A stretch of DNA of 10,087 bases, taken from a virus (Duplodnaviria > Heunggongvirae > Uroviricota > Caudoviricetes). How positions within the stretch are numbered: the first letter of the stretch is position 1; each line of letters starts with the position of its first letter. Under the pieces are notes generated by a model. The model did not search any database, was not told where the DNA came from, and saw only the letters and a list, made by a program, of their open reading frames with translations. Made by a program: the position numbers and the translations under genes. Where the stretch lies: positions 1 to 10,087 of the IMG/VR virus record IMGVR_UViG_2619619129_000007, one strand, 5' to 3'. Shown here piece by piece: positions 1 through 10,087 of this stretch.

Positions 1-674
1 ATTTCGCCCAGGGGATCACCATAATAAAATGCTGAGGCCTGGCCTTTGCGTAGTGCACGCATCACCTCAATACCTTTGATGGTGGCGTAAGCCGTCTTCA
101 TGGATTTAAATCCCAGCGTGGCGCCGATTATCCGTTTCAGTTTGCCATGATCGCATTCAATCACGTTGTTCCGGTACTTAATCTGTCGGTGTTCAACGTC
201 AGACGGGCACCGGCCTTCGCGTTTGAGCAGAGCAAGCGCGCGACCATAGGCGGGCGCTTTATCCGTGTTGATGAATCGCGGGATCTGCCACTTCTTCACG
301 TTGTTGAGGATTTTACCCAGAAACCGGTATGCAGCTTTGCTGTTACGACGGGAGGAGAGATAAAAATCGACAGTGCGGCCCCGGCTGTCGACGGCCCGGT
401 ACAGATACGCCCAGCGGCCATTGACCTTCACGTAGGTTTCATCCATGTGCCACGGGCAAAGATCGGAAGGGTTACGCCAGTACCAGCGCAGCCGTTTTTC
501 CATTTCAGGCGCATAACGCTGAACCCAGCGGTAAATCGTGGAGTGATCGACATTCACTCCGCGTTCAGCCAGCATCTCCTGCAGCTCACGGTAACTGATG
601 CCGTATTTGCAGTACCAGCGTACGGCCCACAGAATGATGTCACGCTGAAAATGCCGGCCTTTGAATGGGTTCAT
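1..674 (-). CDS. tnpA: IS26 DDE transposase (Tnp26), 3' end truncated by the window edge
   Basis: Minus-strand ATG at 674-672 translates MNPFKGRHFQRDIILWAVRWYCKYGISYRELQEMLAERGVNVDHSTIYRWVQRYAPEMEKRL... and runs out of the window at ...FYYGDPLGE, with 224 full codons visible. The + strand track ORF 147..860 is its antisense shadow. Confidence 0.9.
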   Translation of the reverse strand, partial: MNPFKGRHFQRDIILWAVRWYCKYGISYRELQEMLAERGVNVDHSTIYRWVQRYAPEMEKRLRWYWRNPSDLCPWHMDETYVKVNGRWAYLYRAVDSRGRTVDFYLSSRRNSKAAYRFLGKILNNVKKWQIPRFINTDKAPAYGRALALLKREGRCPSDVEHRQIKYRNNVIECDHGKLKRIIGATLGFKSMKTAYATIKGIEVMRALRKGQASAFYYGDPLGE

Positions 675-723
675 GTGCAGCTCCATCAGCAAAAGGGGAT
701 GATAAGTTTATCACCACCGACTA

Positions 724-737
724 TTTGCAACAGTGCC
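724..737. repeat. IS26 14-bp terminal inverted repeat (left end, IRL)
   Basis: TTTGCAACAGTGCC on the + strand is the reverse complement of the IS26 terminal repeat GGCACTGTTGCAAA; it sits 63 bp upstream of the transposase ATG, as in IS26. Confidence 0.85.
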
Positions 738-815
738 ATAGATTCTTACGTAGCGTTTCTGGCGTGCATTTTCGGGTGGTTTGTTACTGTTTTTAACGGG
801 GATACGTCAGAAACG

Positions 816-834
816 CGCTCAGGCCGTCTGAGCG
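816..834 (-). terminator. Possible weak terminator hairpin downstream of the 357-aa minus-strand gene
   Basis: CGCTCAG-GCCGT-CTGAGCG gives a 7-bp perfect stem with a 5-nt loop. On the minus strand it is followed by GCGUUUCUGACG, an interrupted U tract, so termination is uncertain. Confidence 0.3.
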
Positions 835-937
835 GTACGCGTAATGAGGCGTTATGGTAAATAGCCTATGCTAATGTCCGCTAAGAGCGAGGAGCAGACG
901 TTGAAGGCTAAAAGAAGGCTACTGAATTTGTGGCGAT

Positions 938-2011
938 TCAGTCTTCATCCGCACAATGTGGGCAGCCCGTATACCTCATTGTCTCGCCCATTGCTTCACA
1001 GGGAGTCCCACAAATTTCACAAGTATCATAGCCTGTATGGATCTCAAGACATCGTGTGCACAGGAAGTTCTCGCCAAACACACAGACCGTTTCATGGCCC
1101 TCACAGTGAGCGCAATTTGCTAGGCCATCGGGATACATCATTTCGTCCACATGACGAAAATTCTCCTCATCAAGCAAGTTATACCTTGAGAGTTCTGCGT
1201 TACAGGTGCGGCAGATGAAGGTATCGTCATCTTCTTCTTCCACCGGCAGAACCTGGTCTGTATCACACTCAGGACAGGTAAACTTTACATGGCGCTCTGA
1301 GTGAAAACAGACGCGACAAGTTTGCTCATAAACGGTAGGACCGTTCTTCCCGACGGCAAGAATTTCCATGATGGCTGCTGGCTTGTGGCAAATGGTGCAG
1401 GGATGAAATTCAGCGCCCTCAGTCGCAAGTTGTTCCAGCTCGGGCTGGATATGTTTCAGACGGGCTTCGGCATAAAACTCGTTGCCTCGCAGGAGTTGTG
1501 TTTCACCTAATGCCAGTGCCCAGTTGTGTGGTGAAGCAAAATGCTGTTGCCAGTCTTCACGCATTAGTCGGTTCAGTGCAAACCATGCCCGAGCCTGTTC
1601 AGCCAGAATGGTCTCCACCTCAGAATCACTAAAAGCTGTATGAAAGAAATGAACTACACGGTTTCGGTGATTGCGAATGGTATTAAACACAGCTTCGGTT
1701 TCTTTAGGCAGGGGCTTTTCAAGGATATCCCTCAACCGGGTACAGACATCATCAAAGGACACCGACTGAAAATCACCGGCAAGGTAGCTTTTACGCGATA
1801 CTTTTTTACCGCTGCAGACCAGCGTCCAGTGTTCGCTGGCAAGGGGTACCTTGAGCAAAATTTCTACAGCTATCCAGAAACTAACTACCGAGTGTTTGTA
1901 CTGTTTGGCCTCGAACTCTTCACGTGCCTTATCCAGAAAATCCATGCCATTCTTAATGAGAGCCGCCACATCAGCTGCGAGAGGGGCAGGTAATTTTGTT
2001 CGTGTATGCAT
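938..2011 (-). CDS. Hypothetical protein (357 aa): N-terminal alpha-helical HEPN-like domain (candidate RNase motif R-N-R-V-V-H) plus four tandem C-terminal Cys4 zinc ribbons; candidate defence/abortive-infection effector
   Basis: Long uninterrupted minus-strand ORF. Preferred start is the ATG at 2011 (MHTRTKL...), preceded by GGAG with 6-nt spacing; the track's GTG at 2029 is 6 codons upstream. Residues 116-121 are RNRVVH, fitting the Rx4-6H HEPN motif. The C-terminal 150 aa carry eight CxxC pairs (CTIC, CRVC, CPEC, CRTC, CAHC, CTRC, CEIC, CPHC). No named family recognised. Confidence 0.8.
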   Translation of the reverse strand: MHTRTKLPAPLAADVAALIKNGMDFLDKAREEFEAKQYKHSVVSFWIAVEILLKVPLASEHWTLVCSGKKVSRKSYLAGDFQSVSFDDVCTRLRDILEKPLPKETEAVFNTIRNHRNRVVHFFHTAFSDSEVETILAEQARAWFALNRLMREDWQQHFASPHNWALALGETQLLRGNEFYAEARLKHIQPELEQLATEGAEFHPCTICHKPAAIMEILAVGKNGPTVYEQTCRVCFHSERHVKFTCPECDTDQVLPVEEEDDDTFICRTCNAELSRYNLLDEENFRHVDEMMYPDGLANCAHCEGHETVCVFGENFLCTRCLEIHTGYDTCEICGTPCEAMGETMRYTGCPHCADED

Positions 2012-2481
2012 CCTGATCTCCGTTATCACGGGGGGCCGGCAGCTGCTGCAGAGATTAGTGGGTATAGAGGATAAATCTTAGTTGCTGGCTGGCCACCACA
2101 TCGAGGGCAAAGACTTTGGTGTTGACCTCATTGCACTCAAACTTCTCATGCACCATCAGCCATTGCAGGATCTTCGGATGAACAAGGCCATACAACAGGT
2201 GCATTACAAGACTGATCCTACCCAATGTGAGCAAGACCCTAGCGAGGTTATAGTTTCAATAAATTCCGAGCTGAGTCCGCCACAGCACAGTGATTTCGCC
2301 ACCGATTGTAATCTCACTCGATAAAATTAAACACAGTTATTCGCATCATTTCCCGGCTGGCAATGCGTTCACCGTGGATGCCATATTAGATAGCTCCCTT
2401 GGAAACCCTTAACGTCCGCTCCTGGCACAAAGCGGACAGTGATCACCGTTCTTACGACTACTTTCTGACTTCCTTCGTGAC

Positions 2482-2540
2482 TTGCCCTAAGCATGTTGTA
2501 GTGCGATACTTGTAATGACATTTGTAATTACAAGAGGTGT
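2482..2540 (+). promoter_or_regulatory. relBE promoter with relO operator repeats and relB ribosome-binding site
   Basis: TTGCCC (2482-2487), 17-bp spacer, GATACT (2505-2510). This overlaps the tandem operator repeats TTGTAATGACAT and TTGTAATTACAA (2509-2534), followed by AGAGGTG and the relB ATG at 2546. RelB/RelE autoregulation at such repeats is established knowledge. Confidence 0.6.
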
Positions 2541-2545
2541 AAGAC

Positions 2546-2785
2546 ATGGGTAGCATTAACCTGCGTATTGACGATGAACTTAAAGCGCGTTCTTACGCCG
2601 CGCTTGAAAAAATGGGCGTAACTCCTTCTGAAGCGCTTCGTCTCATGCTCGAGTATATCGCTGACAATGAACGCTTGCCGTTCAAACAGACACTCCTGAG
2701 TGATGAAGATGCTGAACTTGTGGAGATAGTGAAAGAACGGCTTCGTAAGCCTAAGCCAGTACGTGTGACGCTGGATGAACTCTGA
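2546..2785 (+). CDS. relB: RelB antitoxin (type II TA, ribbon-helix-helix)
   Basis: 79-aa translation MGSINLRIDDELKARSYAALEKMGVTPSEALRLMLEYIADNERLPFKQTLLSDEDAELVEIVKERLRKPKPVRVTLDEL is near-identical to E. coli K-12 RelB as I recall it. Its stop overlaps the relE start (TGATG). Confidence 0.93.
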   Translation: MGSINLRIDDELKARSYAALEKMGVTPSEALRLMLEYIADNERLPFKQTLLSDEDAELVEIVKERLRKPKPVRVTLDEL

Positions 2786-3072
2786 TGGCGTATTTTCTGG
2801 ATTTTGACGAGCGGGCACTAAAGGAATGGCGAAAGCTGGGCTCGACGGTACGTGAACAGTTGAAAAAGAAGCTGGTTGAAGTACTTGAGTCACCCCGGAT
2901 TGAAGCAAACAAGCTCCGTGGTATGCCTGATTGTTACAAGATTAAGCTCCGGTCTTCAGGCTATCGCCTTGTATACCAGGTTATAGACGAGAAAGTTGTC
3001 GTTTTCGTGATTTCTGTTGGGAAAAGAGAACGCTCGGAAGTATATAGCGAGGCGGTCAAACGCATTCTCTGA
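2785..3072 (+). CDS. relE: RelE toxin (ribosome-dependent mRNA interferase)
   Basis: 95-aa translation MAYFLDFDERALKEWRKLGSTVREQLKKKLVEVLESPRIEANKLRGMPDCYKIKLRSSGYRLVYQVIDEKVVVFVISVGKRERSEVYSEAVKRIL matches E. coli RelE in length and sequence from memory; translationally coupled to relB. Confidence 0.93.
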   Translation: MAYFLDFDERALKEWRKLGSTVREQLKKKLVEVLESPRIEANKLRGMPDCYKIKLRSSGYRLVYQVIDEKVVVFVISVGKRERSEVYSEAVKRIL

Positions 3073-3143
3073 ACCAAAGCATGACATCTCTGTTTCGCAC
3101 CGAAGGTGACACTTCTGCTTTGCGTTGACAGGAGAAGCAGGCT

Positions 3144-3299
3144 ATGAAGCAGCAAAAGGCGATGTTAATCGCCCTGATCGTCATCTGTTTAACCGTCATA
3201 GTGACGGCACTGGTAACGAGGAAAGACCTCTACGAGGTACGAATCCGAACCGGCCAGACGGAGGTCGCTGTCTTCACAGCTTACGAACCTGAGGAGTAA
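3144..3299 (+). CDS. hokD: Hok-family type I membrane toxin (HokD/RelF-like, 51 aa), third gene of the relBEF operon; carries Tyr at the usually conserved Cys position
   Basis: Not in the ORF track (under 60 aa). ATG at 3144 preceded by GGAGAAG; translation MKQQKAMLIALIVICLTVIVTALVTRKDLYEVRIRTGQTEVAVFTAYEPEE. Hok/Gef proteins normally read RKDLCEV here; this copy has TAC (Tyr). Confidence 0.85.
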   Translation: MKQQKAMLIALIVICLTVIVTALVTRKDLYEVRIRTGQTEVAVFTAYEPEE

Positions 3300-3306
3300 G
3301 AGACCA

Positions 3307-3328
3307 GGCGAGGGAGAAATCCCTCGCC
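3307..3328 (+). other. Stable GNRA-tetraloop hairpin in the hokD 3' untranslated region (possible fold-back/stability element)
   Basis: GGCGAGGGA-GAAA-TCCCTCGCC: 9-bp perfect stem closed by a GAAA loop, 8 nt after the hokD stop, with no U tract following. Confidence 0.5.
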
Positions 3329-3367
3329 ACCTCTGATGAGTCAGGCATCCTCAACGCACCCGCACTT

Positions 3368-3394
3368 AACCCGCTTCGGCGGGTTTTGTTTTTT
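3368..3394 (+). terminator. Rho-independent terminator ending the relB-relE-hokD operon
   Basis: CCCGC-TTCG-GCGGG stem-loop (3370-3383) followed by TTTTGTTTTTT. Confidence 0.65.
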
Positions 3395-3466
3395 CCTGGC
3401 ATTCTGGTTTACAATTCGCACGCCAGCCTGAACAACTGGCACCTGCTGCGCCAGCAGAGACAACCG

Positions 3467-3745
3467 ATGGCGCACGATACCAAATTACACAATTCTGATG
3501 ATTCTGCCGTCTTTGCCAGCAGGCACGGGCGGCGTTCCCGCACTTTCAAATCTGACTGGTTCCAGCATCCCCCATGCACTGAAGAACAGGCCGAGTGGCT
3601 AATTCAGTGCTACCGCAGACACGGATACGAGATTAAGAAAGCCCTCAGCCTCGATTATCGTCACTGGATAATCTCCGTCAGGCTTCCTTACTCCGAGCGC
3701 CCACCGCGTCCGTCCCGCACATACCAGCAACGGATCTGGAGGTAA
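3467..3745 (+). CDS. Hypothetical small protein, Rem-like by position (between hokD and ydfU as in K-12 Qin)
   Basis: ORF MAHDTKLHNSDDSAVFASRHGRRSRTFKSDWFQHPPCTEEQAEWLIQCYRRHGYEIKKALSLDYRHWIISVRLPYSERPPRPSRTYQQRIWR. The first in-frame ATG is at 3467; the track's 3386 start is a TTG inside the terminator U tract. The stop lies within GGAGGTAACGTG, which supplies the RBS and GTG start of the next gene. Identity to rem is positional only. Confidence 0.5.
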   Translation: MAHDTKLHNSDDSAVFASRHGRRSRTFKSDWFQHPPCTEEQAEWLIQCYRRHGYEIKKALSLDYRHWIISVRLPYSERPPRPSRTYQQRIWR

Positions 3746-3746
3746 C

Positions 3747-4796
3747 GTGCGGATATTACTTCGACCTGTTCTGGTACCGGAACTCGGGCTTGTGGTCCTT
3801 AGGCCGGGCTGTGAATCCATGCAAGTATTTCATAACCCTCGAGTGCTGGTGGAGCCTGAACCGAAAAGCATGCGTAATCTGCCGTCCGGGGTCGTTCCTG
3901 CCGTTCGCCAGCCGCTAGTGGAAGACAAAACATTGCTGCCGTTTTTCAGTAACGCACGGGTGATTCGTGCTGCTGGTGGTGCTGGTGCATTGTCTGACTG
4001 GCTGTTGCGCCATATTAAATCCTGCCAGTGGCCACACGGCGATTATCATCACAGCGAAACCGTCATTCACCGTTATGGTACCGGCGCAATGGTGTTGTGC
4101 TGGCACTGCGACAACCAGTTGCGTGACCAGACATCCGAATCACTCGAGCAACTTGCTCATCAAAACCTGTCAGCATGGATGATTGACGTCATCGGTCACG
4201 CAATAAGCGGTACGCAGGAGCGTGAATTATCTCTGGCTGAATTATCCTGGTGGGCGGTCCGCAATCAGGTGGCGGACGCGCTACCGGAAGCGGTATTACG
4301 TCGTTCGCTGGGGTTGCGTGCGGAAAAAATCCGCTCAATGTACCGTGAAAGCGACATCGTGCCGGGAGAGCAGACCGCCACCAGCATACTGAAACAGCGC
4401 ACAAAAAATCTTGCGCCGCTGCCTCACGCCCACCAGCAACAGAACCCACCACAGGAAAAGACGGTGGTCAGCATTGCCGTTGATCCTGAGTCTCCGGAAT
4501 CTTTCATGAAACGACCTAAACGTCGCCGCTGGGTTAACGAGAAATACACACGCTGGGTGAAGACACAGCCGTGTGCGTGTTGTGGTAAGCCAGCCGACGA
4601 TCCCCATCACCTGATTGGTCATGGTCAGGGCGGAATGGGGACAAAATCTCACGATATTTTCACGCTACCGCTGTGTCGGGAGCATCACAACGAGCTTCAT
4701 GCGGATCCGCTGGCGTTCGAAGAAAAGCATGGTTCTCAGGTTGATTTAATTTTTCGTTTTCTTGATCACGCCTTTGCAACTGGCGTGCTTGGGTAA
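3747..4796 (+). CDS. ydfU: DUF968-family protein (YdfU-like), with a C-terminal HNH-like Cys/His motif
   Basis: 349-aa ORF from a GTG at 3747 with GGAGG 5 nt upstream. The C-terminus carries CACCGKPADDPHHLIGHGQGG...CREHHNELH. Length and position match my recollection of K-12 Qin ydfU. Confidence 0.72.
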   Translation: MRILLRPVLVPELGLVVLRPGCESMQVFHNPRVLVEPEPKSMRNLPSGVVPAVRQPLVEDKTLLPFFSNARVIRAAGGAGALSDWLLRHIKSCQWPHGDYHHSETVIHRYGTGAMVLCWHCDNQLRDQTSESLEQLAHQNLSAWMIDVIGHAISGTQERELSLAELSWWAVRNQVADALPEAVLRRSLGLRAEKIRSMYRESDIVPGEQTATSILKQRTKNLAPLPHAHQQQNPPQEKTVVSIAVDPESPESFMKRPKRRRWVNEKYTRWVKTQPCACCGKPADDPHHLIGHGQGGMGTKSHDIFTLPLCREHHNELHADPLAFEEKHGSQVDLIFRFLDHAFATGVLG

Positions 4797-4808
4797 AAGA
4801 GGTGACTG

Positions 4809-5165
4809 ATGCTCATAGATTTGGTTTTACCTTACCCACCGACGGTGAACACTTACTGGCGACGCCGTGGCAGCACATATTTTATCTCGGAGGAGGGAAA
4901 GCGTTATCGCCGGGCTGTGGCGCTTATTGTTCGCCAGCAGCGGCTGAAATTAAGCCTGTCCGGAAGGCTGGCGATAAAGGTGATTGCAGAGCCACCGGAT
5001 AAGCGTCGTCGCGACCTGGACAATATCCTGAAAGCACCGCTGGATGCGCTGACGCATGCGGGAGTGTTAATGGACGATGAGCAGTTTGATGAAATCAATA
5101 TCGTTCGTGGTCAGCCAGTATCTGGTGGACGTCTGGGGGTGAAGATTTACCCCATAATGCATTAA
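4809..5165 (+). CDS. rusA: RusA-family Holliday junction resolvase
   Basis: 118-aa translation contains PPDKRRRDLDNILKAPLDALTHAGVLMDDEQ, matching the RusA acidic catalytic region and size; RBS AGAGGTG upstream; sits just upstream of Q as in lambdoid phages. Confidence 0.85.
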   Translation: MLIDLVLPYPPTVNTYWRRRGSTYFISEEGKRYRRAVALIVRQQRLKLSLSGRLAIKVIAEPPDKRRRDLDNILKAPLDALTHAGVLMDDEQFDEINIVRGQPVSGGRLGVKIYPIMH

Positions 5166-5179
5166 GAGCAGGTCAAAAA

Positions 5180-6001
5180 ATGAAACTGGAAGATTTACCG
5201 AAATACTACTCCCCAAAATCCCCTGGCCTGACCGATGCATCGGCCTCAACGTCAAAAGATGCGCTGAGTATCACTGATGTGATGGCCGCGCAGGGCATGA
5301 CACAGAATCGGGCTGAGATGGGTTTTTCTGCGTTCCTGGGGAAAATGGGCATCAGTATGAATGACAGGGCGCGGGCAACAGAATTACTGGCAGATTATGC
5401 ACTCAGTCGGTGCGATCGTGTGGCGGCGTTGAGAAAACTTCCGGCAGAAATAAAACCGGTAGTGATGCGCATTATGGCTTCGTACGCTTTTGAGGATTAT
5501 GCCCGTAGCGCAGCGAGTAAAAAGCAGTGCCCTTGTTGCTATGGGGAAAAATTTATTGAAAGCGTAGTTTTTACAAACAAGGTCCAGTATCCGGATGGTA
5601 AGCCGCCGGTATGGGCAAAGTGTACGAAAGGTGTGTATTCGTCTTACTGGGAAGAATGGAAAAAAGTCAGGGAGGTGGTAAAAGTTGCCTGTCCGGAGTG
5701 TGGCGGAAAGGGTGAGGTTTCCACCGCCTGTAAGGATTGCCGTGGGCGTGGTGTCGCCATTCATCGTGAAGAGTCGGTAAAACGTGGTATGCCTGTTATC
5801 AGAGACTGCCAGCGTTGTGGTGGTCGTGGCTATGAAAGACTACCATCAACGGAGGCATTTAATGCTATATGCGAGGTGACAAACCAGATAACACGCGCGT
5901 CATGGGAAAAAACAGTTAAGAAATTCTATGATGCGCTGGTGACCCGGTTTGATGTTGAAGAAGCATGGGCTGAGCGGCAGTTAAAAAAGGTAACTAGGTA
6001 A
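5180..6001 (+). CDS. Late-gene antitermination protein Q-like (273 aa) with DnaJ-like CxxCxGxG zinc-finger repeats
   Basis: Located between rusA and a pR'/tR'-like promoter-terminator pair. Contains CPCCYGEKF, CPECGGKGEV, CKDCRGRGV and CQRCGGRGYE. Assignment rests on position and these motifs, not on an alignment. Confidence 0.7.
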   Translation: MKLEDLPKYYSPKSPGLTDASASTSKDALSITDVMAAQGMTQNRAEMGFSAFLGKMGISMNDRARATELLADYALSRCDRVAALRKLPAEIKPVVMRIMASYAFEDYARSAASKKQCPCCYGEKFIESVVFTNKVQYPDGKPPVWAKCTKGVYSSYWEEWKKVREVVKVACPECGGKGEVSTACKDCRGRGVAIHREESVKRGMPVIRDCQRCGGRGYERLPSTEAFNAICEVTNQITRASWEKTVKKFYDALVTRFDVEEAWAERQLKKVTR

Positions 6002-6006
6002 CAAGG

Positions 6007-6034
6007 TTGATTTTTCCGGAATCTGTGGTAAATT
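6007..6034 (+). promoter_or_regulatory. Candidate late promoter pR' (extended -10) immediately downstream of Q
   Basis: TTGATT (6007-6012), 16-bp spacer, TGgTAAATT (6026-6034), placed as pR' is in lambdoid phages. Confidence 0.5.
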
Positions 6035-6082
6035 CGTCATAATAATGGGCTTTTTATGCCTGACGTTAGAAGAGTTTCTACA

Positions 6083-6107
6083 ACCCGCCGCCGAGCGGGT
6101 TTTTTAT
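6083..6107 (+). terminator. tR'-like intrinsic terminator (expected Q antitermination target)
   Basis: CCCGC-CGCCGA-GCGGG hairpin followed by TTTTTTATT, about 60 nt downstream of the candidate pR'. Confidence 0.6.
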
Positions 6108-6144
6108 TGCGGAATTAATTACGGACCGTTATTATTCTGCTCCC

Positions 6145-6220
6145 GGCCCTTTAGCTCAGTGGTGAGAGCGAGCGACTCATAATCGCCAGGTCGCTGGTTC
6201 AAATCCAGCAAGGGCCACCA
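6145..6220 (+). tRNA. ileZ: tRNA with CAU anticodon, ileX/ileZ-like (tRNA-Ile2, lysidine-type; tRNA-Met not excluded), CCA encoded
   Basis: Manual cloverleaf: acceptor GGCCCTT/AAGGGCC, D-arm GCTC...GAGC, anticodon loop CTCATAA (CAT at 6178-6180), T-arm GCTGG-TTCAAAT-CCAGC, discriminator A plus CCA. Resembles E. coli ileX from memory. Confidence 0.85.
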
Positions 6221-6320
6221 TCACAAACCGCCATTAGCTTATCAGGAAGAGCAGACGACACGATAACAGGGTTGTTGGTGCGGGGGCGGGTCCCCGATGG
6301 CGGTCCATTATCGGTATTCA

Positions 6321-6394
6321 GCGTTGTTAGCTCAGCCGGACAGAGCAATTGCCTTCTAAGCAATCGGTCACTGGTTCGAATCCAGTACAGCGCG
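6321..6394 (+). tRNA. argO: tRNA-Arg (anticodon UCU), argO-like, CCA not encoded
   Basis: Manual cloverleaf: acceptor GCGTTGT/ACAGCGC (one G-U pair), anticodon stem ATTGC/GCAAT, loop CTTCTAA (TCT at 6355-6357), T-arm ACTGG-TTCGAAT-CCAGT, discriminator G. Confidence 0.85.
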
Positions 6395-6534
6395 CTATAT
6401 TCATTCTTCCAGATTCCTTCCGGCAGAGCCTTATACTGAAATATACCTGGCTCAGGATATTGTTGAAAATATTTTATGTTTGTCAAAAATAAAAGTTCTG
6501 TTAAGTATTGATTGAGTGTTTGTTATACGGTCTA

Positions 6535-6861
6535 ATGGTTTTTTCAGCATTAAATATTTATCATTCATATGGTGTGGGTAGAGTGAATATTGATGAGGCG
6601 TCGGGGTGTTTCATCCTTAGGCAGCGTATTGATATAGTCAATGCAGGACGAGCAAAGGCCTTCAGCCGTTTGACAGTTTTGTTCTGTACTCCTGATCGTC
6701 TTTCGGGAAGAGACGTTATTATTCTGAATAGTGATGCTATACAGAGGGTTTGCGATGAGTTCATGGTTGCTAATTCAGAATTATTTGCTCTTGTTCAGGA
6801 GTACAACAGAATAGCCAGGACCTGTGGTATGGATGAACTTCGGATTACTCATCTGGGGTAG
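6535..6861 (+). CDS. Hypothetical cargo protein (about 108 aa), unrecognised
   Basis: ORF in moderately AT-rich DNA after tRNA-Arg. First in-frame ATG at 6535 (track start 6508 is a TTG); in-frame GTGs at 6574 and 6583 are alternatives. Candidate promoter TTGTCA-N16-TAAGTA at about 6478-6505. No family recognised; coding status unproven. Confidence 0.4.
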   Translation: MVFSALNIYHSYGVGRVNIDEASGCFILRQRIDIVNAGRAKAFSRLTVLFCTPDRLSGRDVIILNSDAIQRVCDEFMVANSELFALVQEYNRIARTCGMDELRITHLG

Positions 6862-7253
6862 ATACATATCTGGATTATCACTTGTTACGGTAAAAAGTGA
6901 TTGCTTACTGTTTTTGTGAGTGGCATTGCAGCAGCCGGATAATGTCAGTGCTGGCTGACGGTGTGCTGGTGGCGGGTGTGGTGGTTGTTGCTTTCCCGTT
7001 GCTGAAAAAGAAAACGCCAGACTGTTAGCCGGGTATCAGTTAGCGGGAGAAATTTTTAAATACTTCACAATTCAGGCGGTTGACTGTTGTCTGGTTTGCG
7101 GGGAGTTTGTTAAAAGAAACTGGCATGGTGAATCCCCCTGTGCGGAGGGGCAATCAGCGAGTAGGTATATGGGATAATCGCGGATTCAGGTGCTGGTACT
7201 GAATTCACCGGGAGGCACCCGGCACCATGCAATGGCACATAGCGCCACTCTCC

Positions 7254-7290
7254 AGCCCCTCTCCGGAGGGGCTGTTTATATTGATTTTGT
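7254..7290 (+). terminator. Strong intrinsic terminator closing the plus-strand cargo unit
   Basis: AGCCCCTC-TCCG-GAGGGGCT: 8-bp perfect stem, followed on the + strand by GTTTATATTGATTTTGT. No U tract on the minus side. Confidence 0.6.
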
Positions 7291-7308
7291 CAGATGTGAG
7301 TAAACTCC

Positions 7309-7644
7309 TTATGGACTTTGTTGTTTTAGTCCATAAGGACATATTTGCAGAGTGCAACGGTTATTAAAGCATTCATTCAATACGTTATCTGTATTTGTAG
7401 GACATTCCTGGCTGTTTTTGATTAAATTCCAGAATGTTTTATTGAATGGTACTACGTTGTAAATGGTTACAGGTAGCACTTTGTTATTGAGCATGATACC
7501 TGTGTGAGTCAGTGTAAATATACTTTCAGGAGGTAAGAAAGCATCCGATTGATACCAGATTATTAATTTTATTTTACTCCATATGACTGAAAAAGATATT
7601 CCGCATGATGGCTGGATAACTGTATCAATCACAATCCACTTCAT
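7309..7644 (-). CDS. Hypothetical Cys-containing protein (111 aa) in strongly AT-rich DNA, transcribed against the late operon
   Basis: Minus-strand ORF with a good RBS (AAGGAAGCTAA then ATG at 7644). Translation [43 protein letters not shown]...[31 protein letters not shown]. No family recognised. Confidence 0.5.
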
Positions 7645-7904
7645 TTAGCTTCCTTGTTTATGCCTTGCTGGTGATGTTCTGAAAAGTATAAATGATATTT
7701 TTGAATATAAACCATAGAGCAGAATTATTTTTCTGATGTTGTTTATTGTTTATTTAAATGCAGGGTGGTTTATATCTCGTCTTGTAGTTTATCCATGCAT
7801 ATCTGCTTGATGATCAGGTTTCTATTTAAGGTATGGTTTTGTGTTTTTTCTGTGTTACATGTCTGGTATTTTAAAGAATTATTTTTCAGATGGTGGAAAG
7901 AACC

Positions 7905-8093
7905 ATGGCATTTAAACACTATGATGTTGTCAGGGCGGCGCCGCCGTCAGATCTTGCGGAAAAGCTGACACATAAACTGAAAGAGGGCTGGCAGCCGTTT
8001 GGTAGTCCGGTGGCCATAACCCCTTATACCCTGATGCAGGCGATTGCAGCAGAAGGTGATGTGGTGGTCAGTGGTGCAACTGAGCCCGAGTGA
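7905..8093 (+). CDS. Small DUF1737-like phage protein commonly found just upstream of holin genes
   Basis: Translation MAFKHYDVVRAAPPSDLAEKLTHKLKEGWQPFGSPVAITPYTLMQAIAAEGDVVVSGATEPE. Start chosen at the ATG at 7905 (GGAAAG upstream) rather than the track's 7890. Family name recalled from memory. Confidence 0.65.
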   Translation: MAFKHYDVVRAAPPSDLAEKLTHKLKEGWQPFGSPVAITPYTLMQAIAAEGDVVVSGATEPE

Positions 8094-8335
8094 TACTACG
8101 TCATCGTACTGGCCCGGCATTCCAGGCCATAAAAGACAGTCTGGCAGTGGGACTAAATGTACTGACGCTGACGGATATTACCAAAAATGCAACGTATGGC
8201 GTTGAGATAGAAAGTCTGGTGCTGGAGATAAATGCACCGGCATCATCATAAAAAGTGAGCCAGTCAAATGGAAGGTATCGTTAAACTCACCGGTAGTGTC
8301 AGTGGATCGTCTGAGACGCTTGCATGAGTTATCAG

Positions 8336-8368
8336 AGCCATCAGTAGTTAACTGGTGGCTTTTTTATT
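8336..8368 (+). terminator. Intrinsic terminator-like hairpin about 35 bp upstream of the holin start
   Basis: AGCCATCAG-TAGTTAA-CTGGTGGCT: 9-bp stem with one G-U pair, followed by TTTTTTATT. Confidence 0.5.
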
Positions 8369-8400
8369 GTTGTCAGCTTCCGGATAACGGGAGACGGGGT

Positions 8401-8616
8401 ATGGACCAGATGGAAAAAATCACAACAGGTGTGTCATACACCACGTCAGCGGTGGGAACGGGCTACTGGTTCCTGCAGTTGCTGGACAGGGTTTCCCCGT
8501 CTCAGTGGGCGGCAATAGGCGTGCTGGGGAGTCTGCTGTTTGGGCTGCTGACATATCTGACTAACCTGTATTTCAAAATCAGAGAGGACCGTCGTAAGGC
8601 GGCACGGGGAGAGTAA
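8401..8616 (+). CDS. Class II holin of the phage 21 S21 pinholin family (71 aa), with dual-start motif M-D-Q-M
   Basis: Translation [71 protein letters not shown] closely resembles S21 as recalled (...[14 protein letters not shown]...[21 protein letters not shown]). The track ORF from 8296 is an in-frame upstream extension. Confidence 0.88.
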
Positions 8617-8620
8617 TTCA

Positions 8621-8971
8621 ATGACTCAAAACTATGAACTGATTGTGAAAGGGATCCGCAATTTTGAGAATAAAGTTACGGTAACTTTAGCGTTACGGGA
8701 CAAAAAACGCTTTGACGGTGAAATTTTTGACCTGGACATCTCGCTGGACCGTGTTGAAGGTGCCGCGCTGGAGTTTTATGAGGCAGCAGCCAGAATGAGC
8801 ATCAGACAGGTCTTCCTGGATGTTGCTGCCGGGTTATGTGAAGGGGATGAGCAGTCGCCGGAAAAGCGCCCCGTAATTTTAGAGGCGCAGAATGTATGGA
8901 TAACCTACAAAGGAAAGCTACCGGGAAGAATTACTGGTTCTCTGAAGACTCCTCCGGAATCACAACCTTAA
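8621..8971 (+). CDS. Hypothetical protein between holin and endolysin, YdfR-like (possibly DUF1327)
   Basis: 116-aa ORF starting 5 nt after the holin stop: MTQNYELIVKGIRNFENKVTVTLALRDKKRFDGEIFDLDISLDRVEGAALEFYEAAARMSIRQVFLDVAAG... A gene occupies this slot in K-12 Qin (ydfR); family number is from uncertain memory. Confidence 0.6.
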   Translation: MTQNYELIVKGIRNFENKVTVTLALRDKKRFDGEIFDLDISLDRVEGAALEFYEAAARMSIRQVFLDVAAGLCEGDEQSPEKRPVILEAQNVWITYKGKLPGRITGSLKTPPESQP

Positions 8972-9034
8972 GTCACTGACCGGAACAGATAAACCTGTCC
9001 GTGGGCAGAAACCGATAAATCCTGATAAATATCC

Positions 9035-9568
9035 ATGAACGCAAAAATCAGATACGGCCTGTCGGCTGCCGTTCTGGCACTGATTGCCGTCGGTGCGCCC
9101 GCGCCTGATATTCTCGACCAGTTTCTGGATGAAAAAGAAGGTAACCACACAACGGCATACCGCGATGGGTCCGGCATCTGGACCATCTGTCGGGGTGCCA
9201 CGATGGTGGATGGAAAACCCGTTTTTCCCGGTATGAAACTGTCGAAGGAAAAATGCGACCAGGTCAACGCCATTGAGCGTGATAAGGCGCTGGCATGGGT
9301 GGAGCGCAATATTAAAGTACTACTGACCGAACCACAAAAAGCGGGTATAGCGTCATTCTGTCCCTATAACATTGGCCCCGGTAAGTGTTTCCCGTCGACG
9401 TTTTATAAGCGGCTGAATGCCGGTGATCGTAAGGGCGCATGCGAGGCGATTCGCTGGTGGATAAAAGATGGTGGGCGCGATTGCCGCATACGTTCAAATA
9501 ACTGCTATGGACAGGTTATTCGTCGTGACCAGGAAAGCGCATTAGCCTGTTGGGGGATAGAGCAGTGA
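9035..9568 (+). CDS. SAR endolysin (phage lysozyme with N-terminal signal-anchor-release domain), R21/RrrQ-like, 177 aa
   Basis: N-terminal Gly/Ala-rich weakly hydrophobic segment [16 protein letters not shown] followed by a lysozyme-like E...D...T region ([22 protein letters not shown]). Pairs naturally with the pinholin. No obvious SD upstream. Confidence 0.85.
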
Positions 9569-10026
9569 GCAGAGTCGCCGCGATTATTTATGCTTTGGTT
9601 ATCTGCATCATCGTCTGCCTGTCGTGGGCGGTCAATCATTACCGTGATAACGCCATCGCCTACAAAGAACAGCGTGATAAAAAAGTCAGTGAGCTGAAGC
9701 AGTCGATCGCCACCATCGCTGACATGCAGCAGCGTCAGCGTGATGTTGCTGCACTCGATGCAAAGTACTCGAGAGAATTAGCCAATGCGAAAGCTGAAAA
9801 TGAAACTCTGCGCGCTGATGTTGCCGCTGGTCGTCGTCGGTTGCACATCAAAGCAGTCTGTCAGTCAGTGCGTGAAGCCACCACCGCCTCCGGCGTGGAT
9901 AATGCAACCAGCCCCCGACTGGCAGACACCGCTGAACGGGATTATTTCACCCTCAGAGAGAGGCTGATCACTATGCAAAAACAACTGGAAGGAACCCAGA
10001 AGTATATTAATGAGCAGTGCAGATAG
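9562..10026 (+). CDS. Rz inner-membrane spanin (i-spanin), lambda Rz-like
   Basis: From GTG at 9562: [30 protein letters not shown]...[62 protein letters not shown], near-identical to lambda Rz as I recall it; overlaps the endolysin stop. Confidence 0.9.
9785..9967 (+). CDS. Rz1 outer-membrane lipoprotein spanin (o-spanin), embedded in Rz in the +1 frame
   Basis: [60 protein letters not shown]: signal peptide with lipobox (VVGC), proline-rich mature part, fully nested in Rz as in lambda. Confidence 0.85.
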
Positions 10027-10087
10027 AGCTGCCCATATCGATGGGCAACTCATGCAATTATTGTGAGCAATACACACGCGCTTCCAG

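Follow-up and report, generated by a model that had tools for sequence, protein, structure and literature searches.

The DNA analysed here, referred to throughout as the window, is a stretch of 10,087 nucleotides (nt), positions 1 to 10,087 of the viral record IMGVR_UViG_2619619129_000007, and represents the regulatory-to-lysis part of a Qin-type lambdoid prophage of Escherichia coli. The segment of interest (6400-7290) lies on the plus strand between a tRNA-Arg gene, itself downstream of the gene Q, and the lysis genes, and it holds three components: orf92, a gene of 92 codons (GTG 6583 to stop 6861) of the family phrog_2873; a short hydrophobic open reading frame (ORF) of the DUF3927/TciB family (6897-7028); and a small RNA (sRNA) gene of the STnc100 family (7123..7283). 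In a first-pass annotation, the segment had been read as one self-contained moron running from its own promoter to its own terminator. The evidence set out below suggests that it is probably a mosaic of separately mobile modules, carried as cargo in a late-region moron slot, and not one unit; in this arrangement, module A (~6506-7028) would comprise orf92 and a 5'-truncated tciB/DUF3927 gene for a single-transmembrane peptide, and module B (~7051-7283) would be the STnc100 gene. Each of the three components falls into a family that Rfam, Pfam or PHROGs already lists, and little about them is new.

The sRNA gene on the plus strand is identified by an Rfam match, by its fold and by conservation. 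The STnc100 model (RF02076) aligns over its full length (positions 1-206 of 206) with 7094-7283 of the window, plus strand, at 132.4 bits against a gathering score of 47 (E 1.1e-29). In an alignment of 10 STnc100 copies from different contexts (among them the window, mEp460, JLK-2012, vB_EcoS-640R1 and five in E. coli 07-4299), the conserved RNA body starts GCAUGGUGAAUCCCCC, and the consensus fold consists of five helices, namely a closing helix (GCAUGGUG/CACCAUGC), three internal stem-loops and the terminator; in the window, the stem-loops of the 5' domain fall at 7135-7150, 7182-7206 and 7208-7222. The fold has 34 pairs in its five helices, with 98.5% of the cells paired and compensatory changes at eight pairs; none of 500 shuffles reached these values, and slid controls were 37-54% paired. 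The minimum free energy of 7121-7284 is -69.2 kcal/mol (z = -2.49 against shuffles). Two parts vary between copies, the segment between the first and third helices and a single-stranded linker of ~23 nt (7230-7252) that precedes the terminator. The terminator stem (7253-7274) has nine pairs, seven of them G-C, with a loop of four and then a T-rich tail, and this fifth helix is conserved, with two compensatory pairs. The hairpin-rich stretch ending in a terminator that the first-pass annotation described does contain a strong plus-strand terminator-like hairpin, while the stretch itself is the STnc100 gene.

Upstream of the RNA body lies a conserved block (7051..7122, plus strand), with columns invariant in the 10 copies, which include the motifs TTG.CTG and TTGTTAAAA. 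A putative sigma-70 promoter can be read from this block, with a -35 element TTGTCT at 7087-7092, an 18-nt spacer and an extended -10 element TGtTAAAAG at 7108-7116, and transcription would start at about G7123. The 5' end of PasD2, an sRNA of enteropathogenic E. coli (EPEC) E2348/69, as estimated by RNA sequencing (RNA-seq; NC_011601 position 741157, table S6 of PMC8550237), aligns exactly with G7123 of the window, and the PasD2 sequence TTGACT aligns with the window TTGTCT. In Salmonella LT2, an RpoD signal has been reported at STnc100 promoters by chromatin immunoprecipitation with exonuclease digestion (ChIP-exo; PMC10794520). Farther upstream of the -35 element, an A/T-rich block at 7051-7076 (GAAATTTTTAAATACTTCACAATTCAGG) is nearly invariant in the ten copies and could represent an UP element, the site of a regulator or an additional promoter.

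The window element (7051-7283) has 10,788 matching places in 3,409 of 5,426 complete E. coli genomes (63%), with up to 13 per genome; among the matches listed, the annotation beneath the element is "hypothetical protein" or no feature, and never a noncoding RNA. For instance, in a genome identical to the window, the Prokaryotic Genome Annotation Pipeline (PGAP) places a minus-strand "hypothetical protein, incomplete" pseudogene at 7113-7238, over STnc100, and PasD2 in E2348/69 is likewise overlain by a PGAP minus-strand pseudogene. To our knowledge, STnc100 itself has no demonstrated function. Its expression has been documented: all 11 STnc100 copies of EDL933 gave RNA-seq reads in uninduced culture, and one of them, STnc100_4, was confirmed by Northern blot (PMC5331693).

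Among characterized relatives is EcOnc27 (sRNA103 of E. coli O157:H7), an STnc100 RNA identified through Hfq crosslinking; in O157 Sakai its gene lies immediately downstream of stx2B, in the moron insertion site 3' of pR', convergent with the anti-sRNA AsxR (PMC4104026; PMC12711010). EcOnc27 shares with the window copy the five-helix architecture, the upstream block and the plus-strand terminator, and both stand last, on the 3' side, in the cargo that a lambdoid prophage carries between Q and its lysis genes. However, EcOnc27 follows stx2B, whereas the window copy follows the DUF3927 ORF, and its partner is the AsxR/AgvB anti-sRNA, whereas the convergent partner of the window copy is the gene iraM. 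An anti-sRNA partner in the window was considered and rejected, because the convergent gene is iraM and neither AsxR (RF02703) nor AgvB (RF02702) gave an Rfam match in the window at E <= 1. Compared with other STnc100 members, the window copy has a linker of its own and an interrupted U-tail.

Similarly, Northern blots have revealed the EPEC sRNAs PasD1 and PasD2, which need Hfq for their stability (Pearl Mizrahi et al. 2021; PMC8550237), and a relationship between PasD and STnc100 was described in a 2026 preprint (Zhu, Shabalina and Storz; bioRxiv 10.64898/2026.05.13.724894). Both share with the window RNA the 5' end (GCAUGGUGAAUCC...), the first stem-loop, the GGGAGGC motif and the promoter geometry, and PasD is built on the same overall plan, with a structured 5' body, then a linker that carries the seed, then a terminator. 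The neighbourhood of PasD2 also corresponds to that of the window, with Q upstream, a DUF3927 gene immediately 5' and lysis genes 3'. In contrast, the 3' half of PasD2, with its UGUGAG seed and its terminator, is unrelated to the window copy; homology is confined to the promoter and the 5' domain, and PasD2 scores below the gathering score of the STnc100 model. Assignment of the window RNA to PasD proper was rejected because the linker, the UGUGAG seed and the terminator differ from those of E2348/69 PasD2. The seed of the window copy would nevertheless be expected in the linker 7230-7252, because the PasD seed UGUGAG sits in the equivalent linker.

The protein-coding part of the segment begins with a frame that the first-pass annotation had reported as an ORF of roughly 108 codons (6535-6861) without an assignment. 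The plus-strand frame ending at 6861 is open from TTG 6508 or ATG 6535 and contains a real gene, but its conserved coding core starts at GTG 6583 and covers 92 codons. The segment 6396-6896 was found in 1,315 of 5,426 complete E. coli genomes (~24%), and copies only 60-80% identical to it occur in 128 of the 1,315. Two divergent copies were examined for orf92, designated L005 and L006 (the latter from E. coli 07-4299), and both keep the 92-codon frame from the equivalent GTG to the equivalent stop with zero indels relative to the window. In the three pairwise comparisons among the window, L005 and L006, DNA identity is 67-72%, differences hit third codon positions about twice as often, and the ratio of nonsynonymous to synonymous substitution rates (dN/dS) is 0.26-0.27, compared with ~1 in the other frames, one antisense frame excepted. 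Close copies in viral contigs are intact in 83 of 83 cases, and seven of their ten variable sites fall at third codon positions (2/1/7 at positions 1/2/3). A homologue search with the product returned phrog_2873 (E 5.1e-58, 194.9 bits), with residues 1-92 aligned to profile positions 17-108 of 108. Among 1.84 billion protein representatives searched exhaustively with HMMER, only 19 are relatives, and the full-length ones of these, at 32-44% identity, are 91-95 amino acids (aa) long. Because the frame is kept without indels, dN/dS is low, third positions vary in excess and distant relatives are 91-95 aa long, orf92 is, judged from these sequence comparisons, a real gene under purifying selection that lacks annotation both in the identical genome and among the listed near-identical copies.

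With regard to the start codon, the 25-codon extension upstream of GTG 6583 is missing from L005 and lies in another frame in L006, and PGAP calls the L005 copy (WP_001017777.1) from the equivalent GTG; ATG 6535 may still serve the window copy, as it is retained in the close lineage. The antisense ORF (6561..6764) that had been cited as casting doubt on the coding status is indeed open in the window. As a gene it was rejected, since the antisense frame carries stops in two of the three copies (window and L006) and is not conserved. The similarly low dN/dS of the antisense frame is explained by its register, in which third codon positions fall on third positions of the sense frame.

The orf92 product is computed to be soluble and mildly acidic, and its AlphaFold2 model is a two-helix hairpin (residues 3-35 and 50-81) with a predicted local distance difference test (pLDDT) score of 84; it may act by binding another protein. 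The protein has no match in Pfam, NCBIfam or PADLOC, and phrog_2873 is a tiny family without a Pfam, NCBIfam, PADLOC or PDB relative. A literature search on the orf92 protein accessions, phrog_2873 and TciB returned nothing relevant. Just upstream of orf92, at the equivalent of window 6505, one viral locus (L026, at ~3911) carries an IS1 insertion; this insertion accounts for a homology breakpoint at 6505, which was therefore rejected as a unit boundary. In another viral locus, the tRNA-orf92-DUF3927 block occurs twice in tandem.

The DUF3927/TciB ORF follows on the plus strand at 6897-7028. The hydrophobic ORF of 28 codons in the first-pass annotation exists from ATG 6942, and it extends to 43 codons from GTG 6897, the start called by PGAP. 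It matches Pfam PF13064 (1.7e-27; 95.6 bits against a cutoff of 25) and phrog_1470, "TciB-like" (7.8e-13). In an alignment with JLK-2012 TciB and a Citrobacter homologue, the C-terminal hydrophobic segment is nearly unchanged and the first ~21 residues are replaced, including the first hydrophobic segment of full-length TciB. For JLK-2012, the C-terminal 29 residues (SSRIMSVLADGVLVAGVVVVAFPLLKKK) are nearly identical to those of the window ORF, nucleotide homology begins at window 6929, inside the ORF, and tciB likewise stands just 5' of STnc100; the JLK-2012 tciA-tciB pair, unlike the window, has an intact N-terminus and a tciA partner. The full-length TciB architecture (~50-54 aa, two hydrophobic segments, a TerB-domain tciA) is not found in the window ORF, and tciA is absent from the window. 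The 43-aa model has a stop at codon 8 in two of 81 close copies; translation may really start at ATG 6942 and give a product of 28 aa, or the ORF may be no more than a remnant. We know of no DUF3927/TciB member with a tested function, and the name derives from annotation only.

A possible origin of this shortened gene can be seen outside E. coli. Scans for distant orf92 contexts gave only near-identical copies among viral contigs, and one informative locus among genomes, in Citrobacter braakii ATCC 51113 (L087, 4001-5063), where a gene for a 95-aa orf92 relative precedes tciA (TerB) and a full-length tciB (DUF3927), with lysis genes after them. This cluster lies downstream of two tRNA genes, and no STnc100 match was obtained in the locus. 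With an orf92 relative beside an intact tciA-tciB, the window arrangement looks like a deletion derivative of an orf92-tciA-tciB cluster.

These observations on the two ORFs bear on an alternative in which the sRNA alone is functional and the two ORFs (6508/6583-6861 and DUF3927) are non-coding debris that recombination left in the slot. Such a reading would agree with the missing PGAP call for orf92, both in the identical genome and among the near-identical matches listed, which is in itself a point against treating orf92 as a gene; with the N-terminal truncation and occasional interruption of the DUF3927 ORF; and with the similarly low dN/dS of the orf92 antisense frame, where third positions coincide. 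It is nonetheless improbable for the two ORFs together, as the orf92 frame is free of indels at ~70% DNA identity, relatives of 91-95 aa occur at 32-40% identity (one in another genus), only the sense frame is stop-free in all copies, and AlphaFold2 returns a confident model. Taken by itself, the DUF3927 ORF may plausibly be debris.

The DUF3927 gene stands immediately 5' of the sRNA in the window, JLK-2012, mEp460 and E2348/69 (PasD2). Since it recurs in the latter three, the pairing of the DUF3927 gene with the sRNA is, from these sequences, older than the window lineage. The recurrent order, together with the shortness and hydrophobicity of the peptide (grand average of hydropathy, GRAVY, ~1.0), could also be taken to mean that the peptide and the STnc100/PasD RNA next to it make up a type I toxin-antitoxin-like system, in which the sRNA represses the mRNA of a membrane toxin. 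This idea was rejected as highly improbable. The RNA is co-oriented with and downstream of the DUF3927 gene, not antisense to it; the best duplex between the variable RNA segments and the DUF3927 start regions (-20.8 kcal/mol) is no better than that of shuffled RNA (median best of the null, -22.3 kcal/mol); and STnc100 also occurs without the peptide gene, after stx2B (PMC12370729), after tolA and in tandem arrays.

Whether these components form one unit depends in part on the promoter proposed for the protein ORFs, TTGTCA-N16-TAAGTA, which the first-pass annotation placed 2 nt away (6478-6505) from its real position (6480..6507, plus strand). The motif is present as letters. Its TAAGTA hexamer has no T at position 6 and fails the criteria of a promoter scan, and the 2-kb region contains six promoter-like sites against 4.9 +/- 2.4 in shuffles, which is chance level. 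The L006 homology begins at ~6506, and the TTGTCA -35 element is not common to the divergent copies. Two other candidates, TTGATT-N17-TCTAAT at 6508-6536 and the conserved motif TTAT(A)ATCAT ~25 nt before the GTG, were rejected, since neither combines good hexamers with conservation.

An autonomous moron would be transcribed from 6480-6507 through both ORFs to 7253-7283, with the hairpin-rich stretch as its 3' untranslated region (UTR). Several features would suit such a transcript: all elements are co-oriented, the region upstream is AT-rich (31% GC), the order from the upstream region through orf92, the gap and the DUF3927 ORF to STnc100 is kept in ~78 of 83 viral loci, and many sRNAs are cut from 3' UTRs, so that read-through could feed the STnc100 pool. 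We consider this arrangement unlikely, as the promoter is a weak, unconserved site no better than chance, STnc100 is preceded by a conserved promoter block of its own, and the 5' end of PasD2 falls on the internal start. The co-linearity from tRNA-Arg through STnc100 is seen only among copies that are 97-99% identical and thus represent one lineage. Beyond this lineage the parts separate: STnc100 is found without the two ORFs after stx2B (PMC12370729) and, in L006, after tolA and in a four-copy tandem array, and in L005 orf92 is accompanied by a terminator of its own but by no sRNA. Moreover, homology of phages to the window sets in at 7049-7065 and breaks off at 7230 or 7279, that is, at the edges of the sRNA gene or at the junction of body and linker. 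The single promoter-to-terminator unit of the first-pass annotation is not upheld, because its terminator belongs to an STnc100 gene with its own promoter block (7087-7116), and the mosaic of separately mobile modules is preferred. In L006, the slot (632-4118) holds, in this order, a tolA-like moron, an STnc100 copy, an AraC-type helix-turn-helix gene, the orf92 homologue, four tandem STnc100 copies whose internal segments differ, and a SASA esterase gene.

The slot itself is framed on the left by Q (5180-6001; Pfam Antiterm 2.2e-54) and, just 3' of it on the plus strand, by a pR'-like promoter and a tR' terminator with a short leader (6002..6108; terminator at 6082-6101 followed by a T run). 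The position of this leader with its strong terminator is comparable to that of the lambda 6S / StxS leader RNA; Rfam returned over the 6082-6101 hairpin only a weak, sub-threshold Trp_leader match that was judged spurious. Two plus-strand tRNA genes follow, one with anticodon CAT (6145-6220; ARAGORN, Rfam tRNA 72.5 bits) and one for tRNA-Arg (TCT) at 6321-6395 (ARAGORN, Rfam tRNA 68 bits, PGAP of the identical genome). The first is called tRNA-Met (CAT) by ARAGORN and tRNA-Ile by PGAP in the identical genome, and is presumably a lysidine-modified ileZ-type tRNA. On the right, the DUF1737 gene starts at 7890 (Pfam scan) and the holin gene at 8401 (PGAP annotation), so that the gap between the tRNA-Arg end (6395) and DUF1737 measures 1,494 bp, in agreement with the earlier estimate of about 1.5 kb. 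Outside the unit but within this gap, an iraM-type anti-adapter gene (7309..7644, minus strand; NCBIfam NF007393, 4.7e-48, 162 bits against a cutoff of 121; also called by PGAP) is the convergent neighbour of STnc100. Over its stop codon lies a 12-bp hairpin (7306-7340) whose loop on the iraM strand is CA-rich (UAAAACAACAAA) and is followed by only UUUA, and iraM transcripts may run antisense into STnc100. At least 12 of 83 related loci lack iraM and have the holin gene immediately after STnc100; otherwise iraM-DUF1737 follows.

The window region 6396-7900 is 100% identical to the chromosomes of several enterotoxigenic E. coli (ETEC) strains, in which Q, tRNA-Ile, tRNA-Arg, DUF3927, iraM, DUF1737 and holin are annotated. 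The backbone (relB-relE-hok, DUF968/ydfU, rusA and Q, then holin, ydfR, lysozyme and Rz) matches the K-12 cryptic prophage Qin, with which the window has the frame relBE-hok-ydfU-Q ... essQ-ydfR-rrrQ in common. The cargo differs: K-12 Qin carries ynfS/cspF/cspB/ynfU between Q and holin, and Stx2 phages carry stx2AB between Q/pR'-tR' (with tRNAs) and holin (PMC4104026), followed by an STnc100-family sRNA (PMC4104026, PMC12711010). The window slot contains neither a toxin gene nor a cold-shock gene, and the frame from Q to holin holds different cargo in K-12 Qin, E2348/69 PP2, JLK-2012, mEp460 and L006. The variable cargo slot downstream of Q, pR'-tR' and the tRNAs that had been proposed from the sequence is borne out by these comparisons. 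In the sense attributed to Juhala et al. 2000, a moron is reportedly extra DNA between genes that are adjacent in related phages, with its own promoter and terminator. The window slot does hold such extra DNA, with a terminator, and the sRNA has a conserved promoter block; a promoter for orf92 and the DUF3927 ORF is unsupported. Elsewhere in the window, a 363-aa protein encoded at 938-2029 (minus strand) matches the PADLOC candidate defence family HEC-08 (E 4.7e-145) and DUF3644, and in ETEC strain 602354 (NZ_CP025847), whose prophage is otherwise identical, an iteA/iteS anti-phage pair lies upstream of the rem-like and ydfU genes. The stretch 2546-3389 contains a relB-relE-hok module, as in K-12 Qin, and at its end, immediately downstream of hok, Rfam gives an isrK-like match at 3308-3389 that stays below threshold (27.8 bits against a gathering score of 50).

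For the expression of the mosaic, homologues point to the following sequence of events. An STnc100 RNA of ~160 nt would be transcribed in the lysogen by sigma-70 polymerase from ~7123, whether constitutively or under regulation, and would be made in the uninduced state, as with EcOnc27 and PasD; transcription would end at the 7253-7283 terminator. By homology, the RNA would bind Hfq and pair in trans with host or prophage mRNAs through its variable linker. When duplex energies were computed between the two variable segments of the sRNA and 17 translation-start regions in the window, they were no better than those of shuffled RNA. In the absence of Q, the same terminator would also halt unmodified polymerase arriving from upstream, and Q-modified polymerase from pR' would read through it to the lysis genes. 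With the least confidence, we infer that orf92 and the DUF3927 ORF are transcribed mainly in the Q-dependent late transcript, like stx2AB, because they have no convincing promoter of their own and are co-oriented with the late operon downstream of pR'-tR'; both may also be weakly expressed in the lysogen.

Several points weigh against this account. The expression, the Hfq binding and the seed ascribed to the window's own STnc100 copy are carried over from homologues, and the late-transcript expression of both protein ORFs is likewise deduced. The proposed -10 element (TAAAAG) has no consensus final T, and a generic promoter scan misses the site. The U-tail of the window copy is interrupted by A residues (GUUUAUAUUGAUUUUG), compared with UUUUUU in most copies, which could weaken both termination and Hfq binding. 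For orf92, a profile search against PDB sequences gave no match at E <= 1, and Foldseek comparison of its model with PDB and BFVD returned only generic helical hairpins (E >= 0.3). Finally, the shortened DUF3927 ORF, with its stops in two of 81 copies, may be a non-functional remnant.

The outcome is mainly a correction: the structured, terminator-ended stretch is one of the commonest sRNAs of E. coli prophages and not a new 3' UTR. STnc100 is missing from the RefSeq records examined, or mis-annotated there as a spurious antisense "hypothetical protein", and annotation also gains a 92-aa gene under purifying selection in ~24% of complete E. coli genomes. The order of DUF3927 gene and sRNA and the mosaic breakpoints fit published ideas on sRNAs and moron sites (Tree et al. 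2014; Zhu et al. 2026) and extend them little. Copies of STnc100 end cargo as different as stx2AB, tolA, tciAB and orf92-DUF3927, with arrays of up to four copies, and homology breaks off at the edges of the element and at one point inside it, where its structured body meets the linker; a further, rather doubtful interpretation would make STnc100-type elements the punctuation of a cassette system in the Q-to-lysis slot, with orf92, separately, as a real unannotated accessory factor ancestrally linked to tciA-tciB. If this were true, the element would insulate and terminate cargo transcription and supply an Hfq sRNA with a swappable seed, and STnc100 would provide the homology for cargo exchange between prophages.

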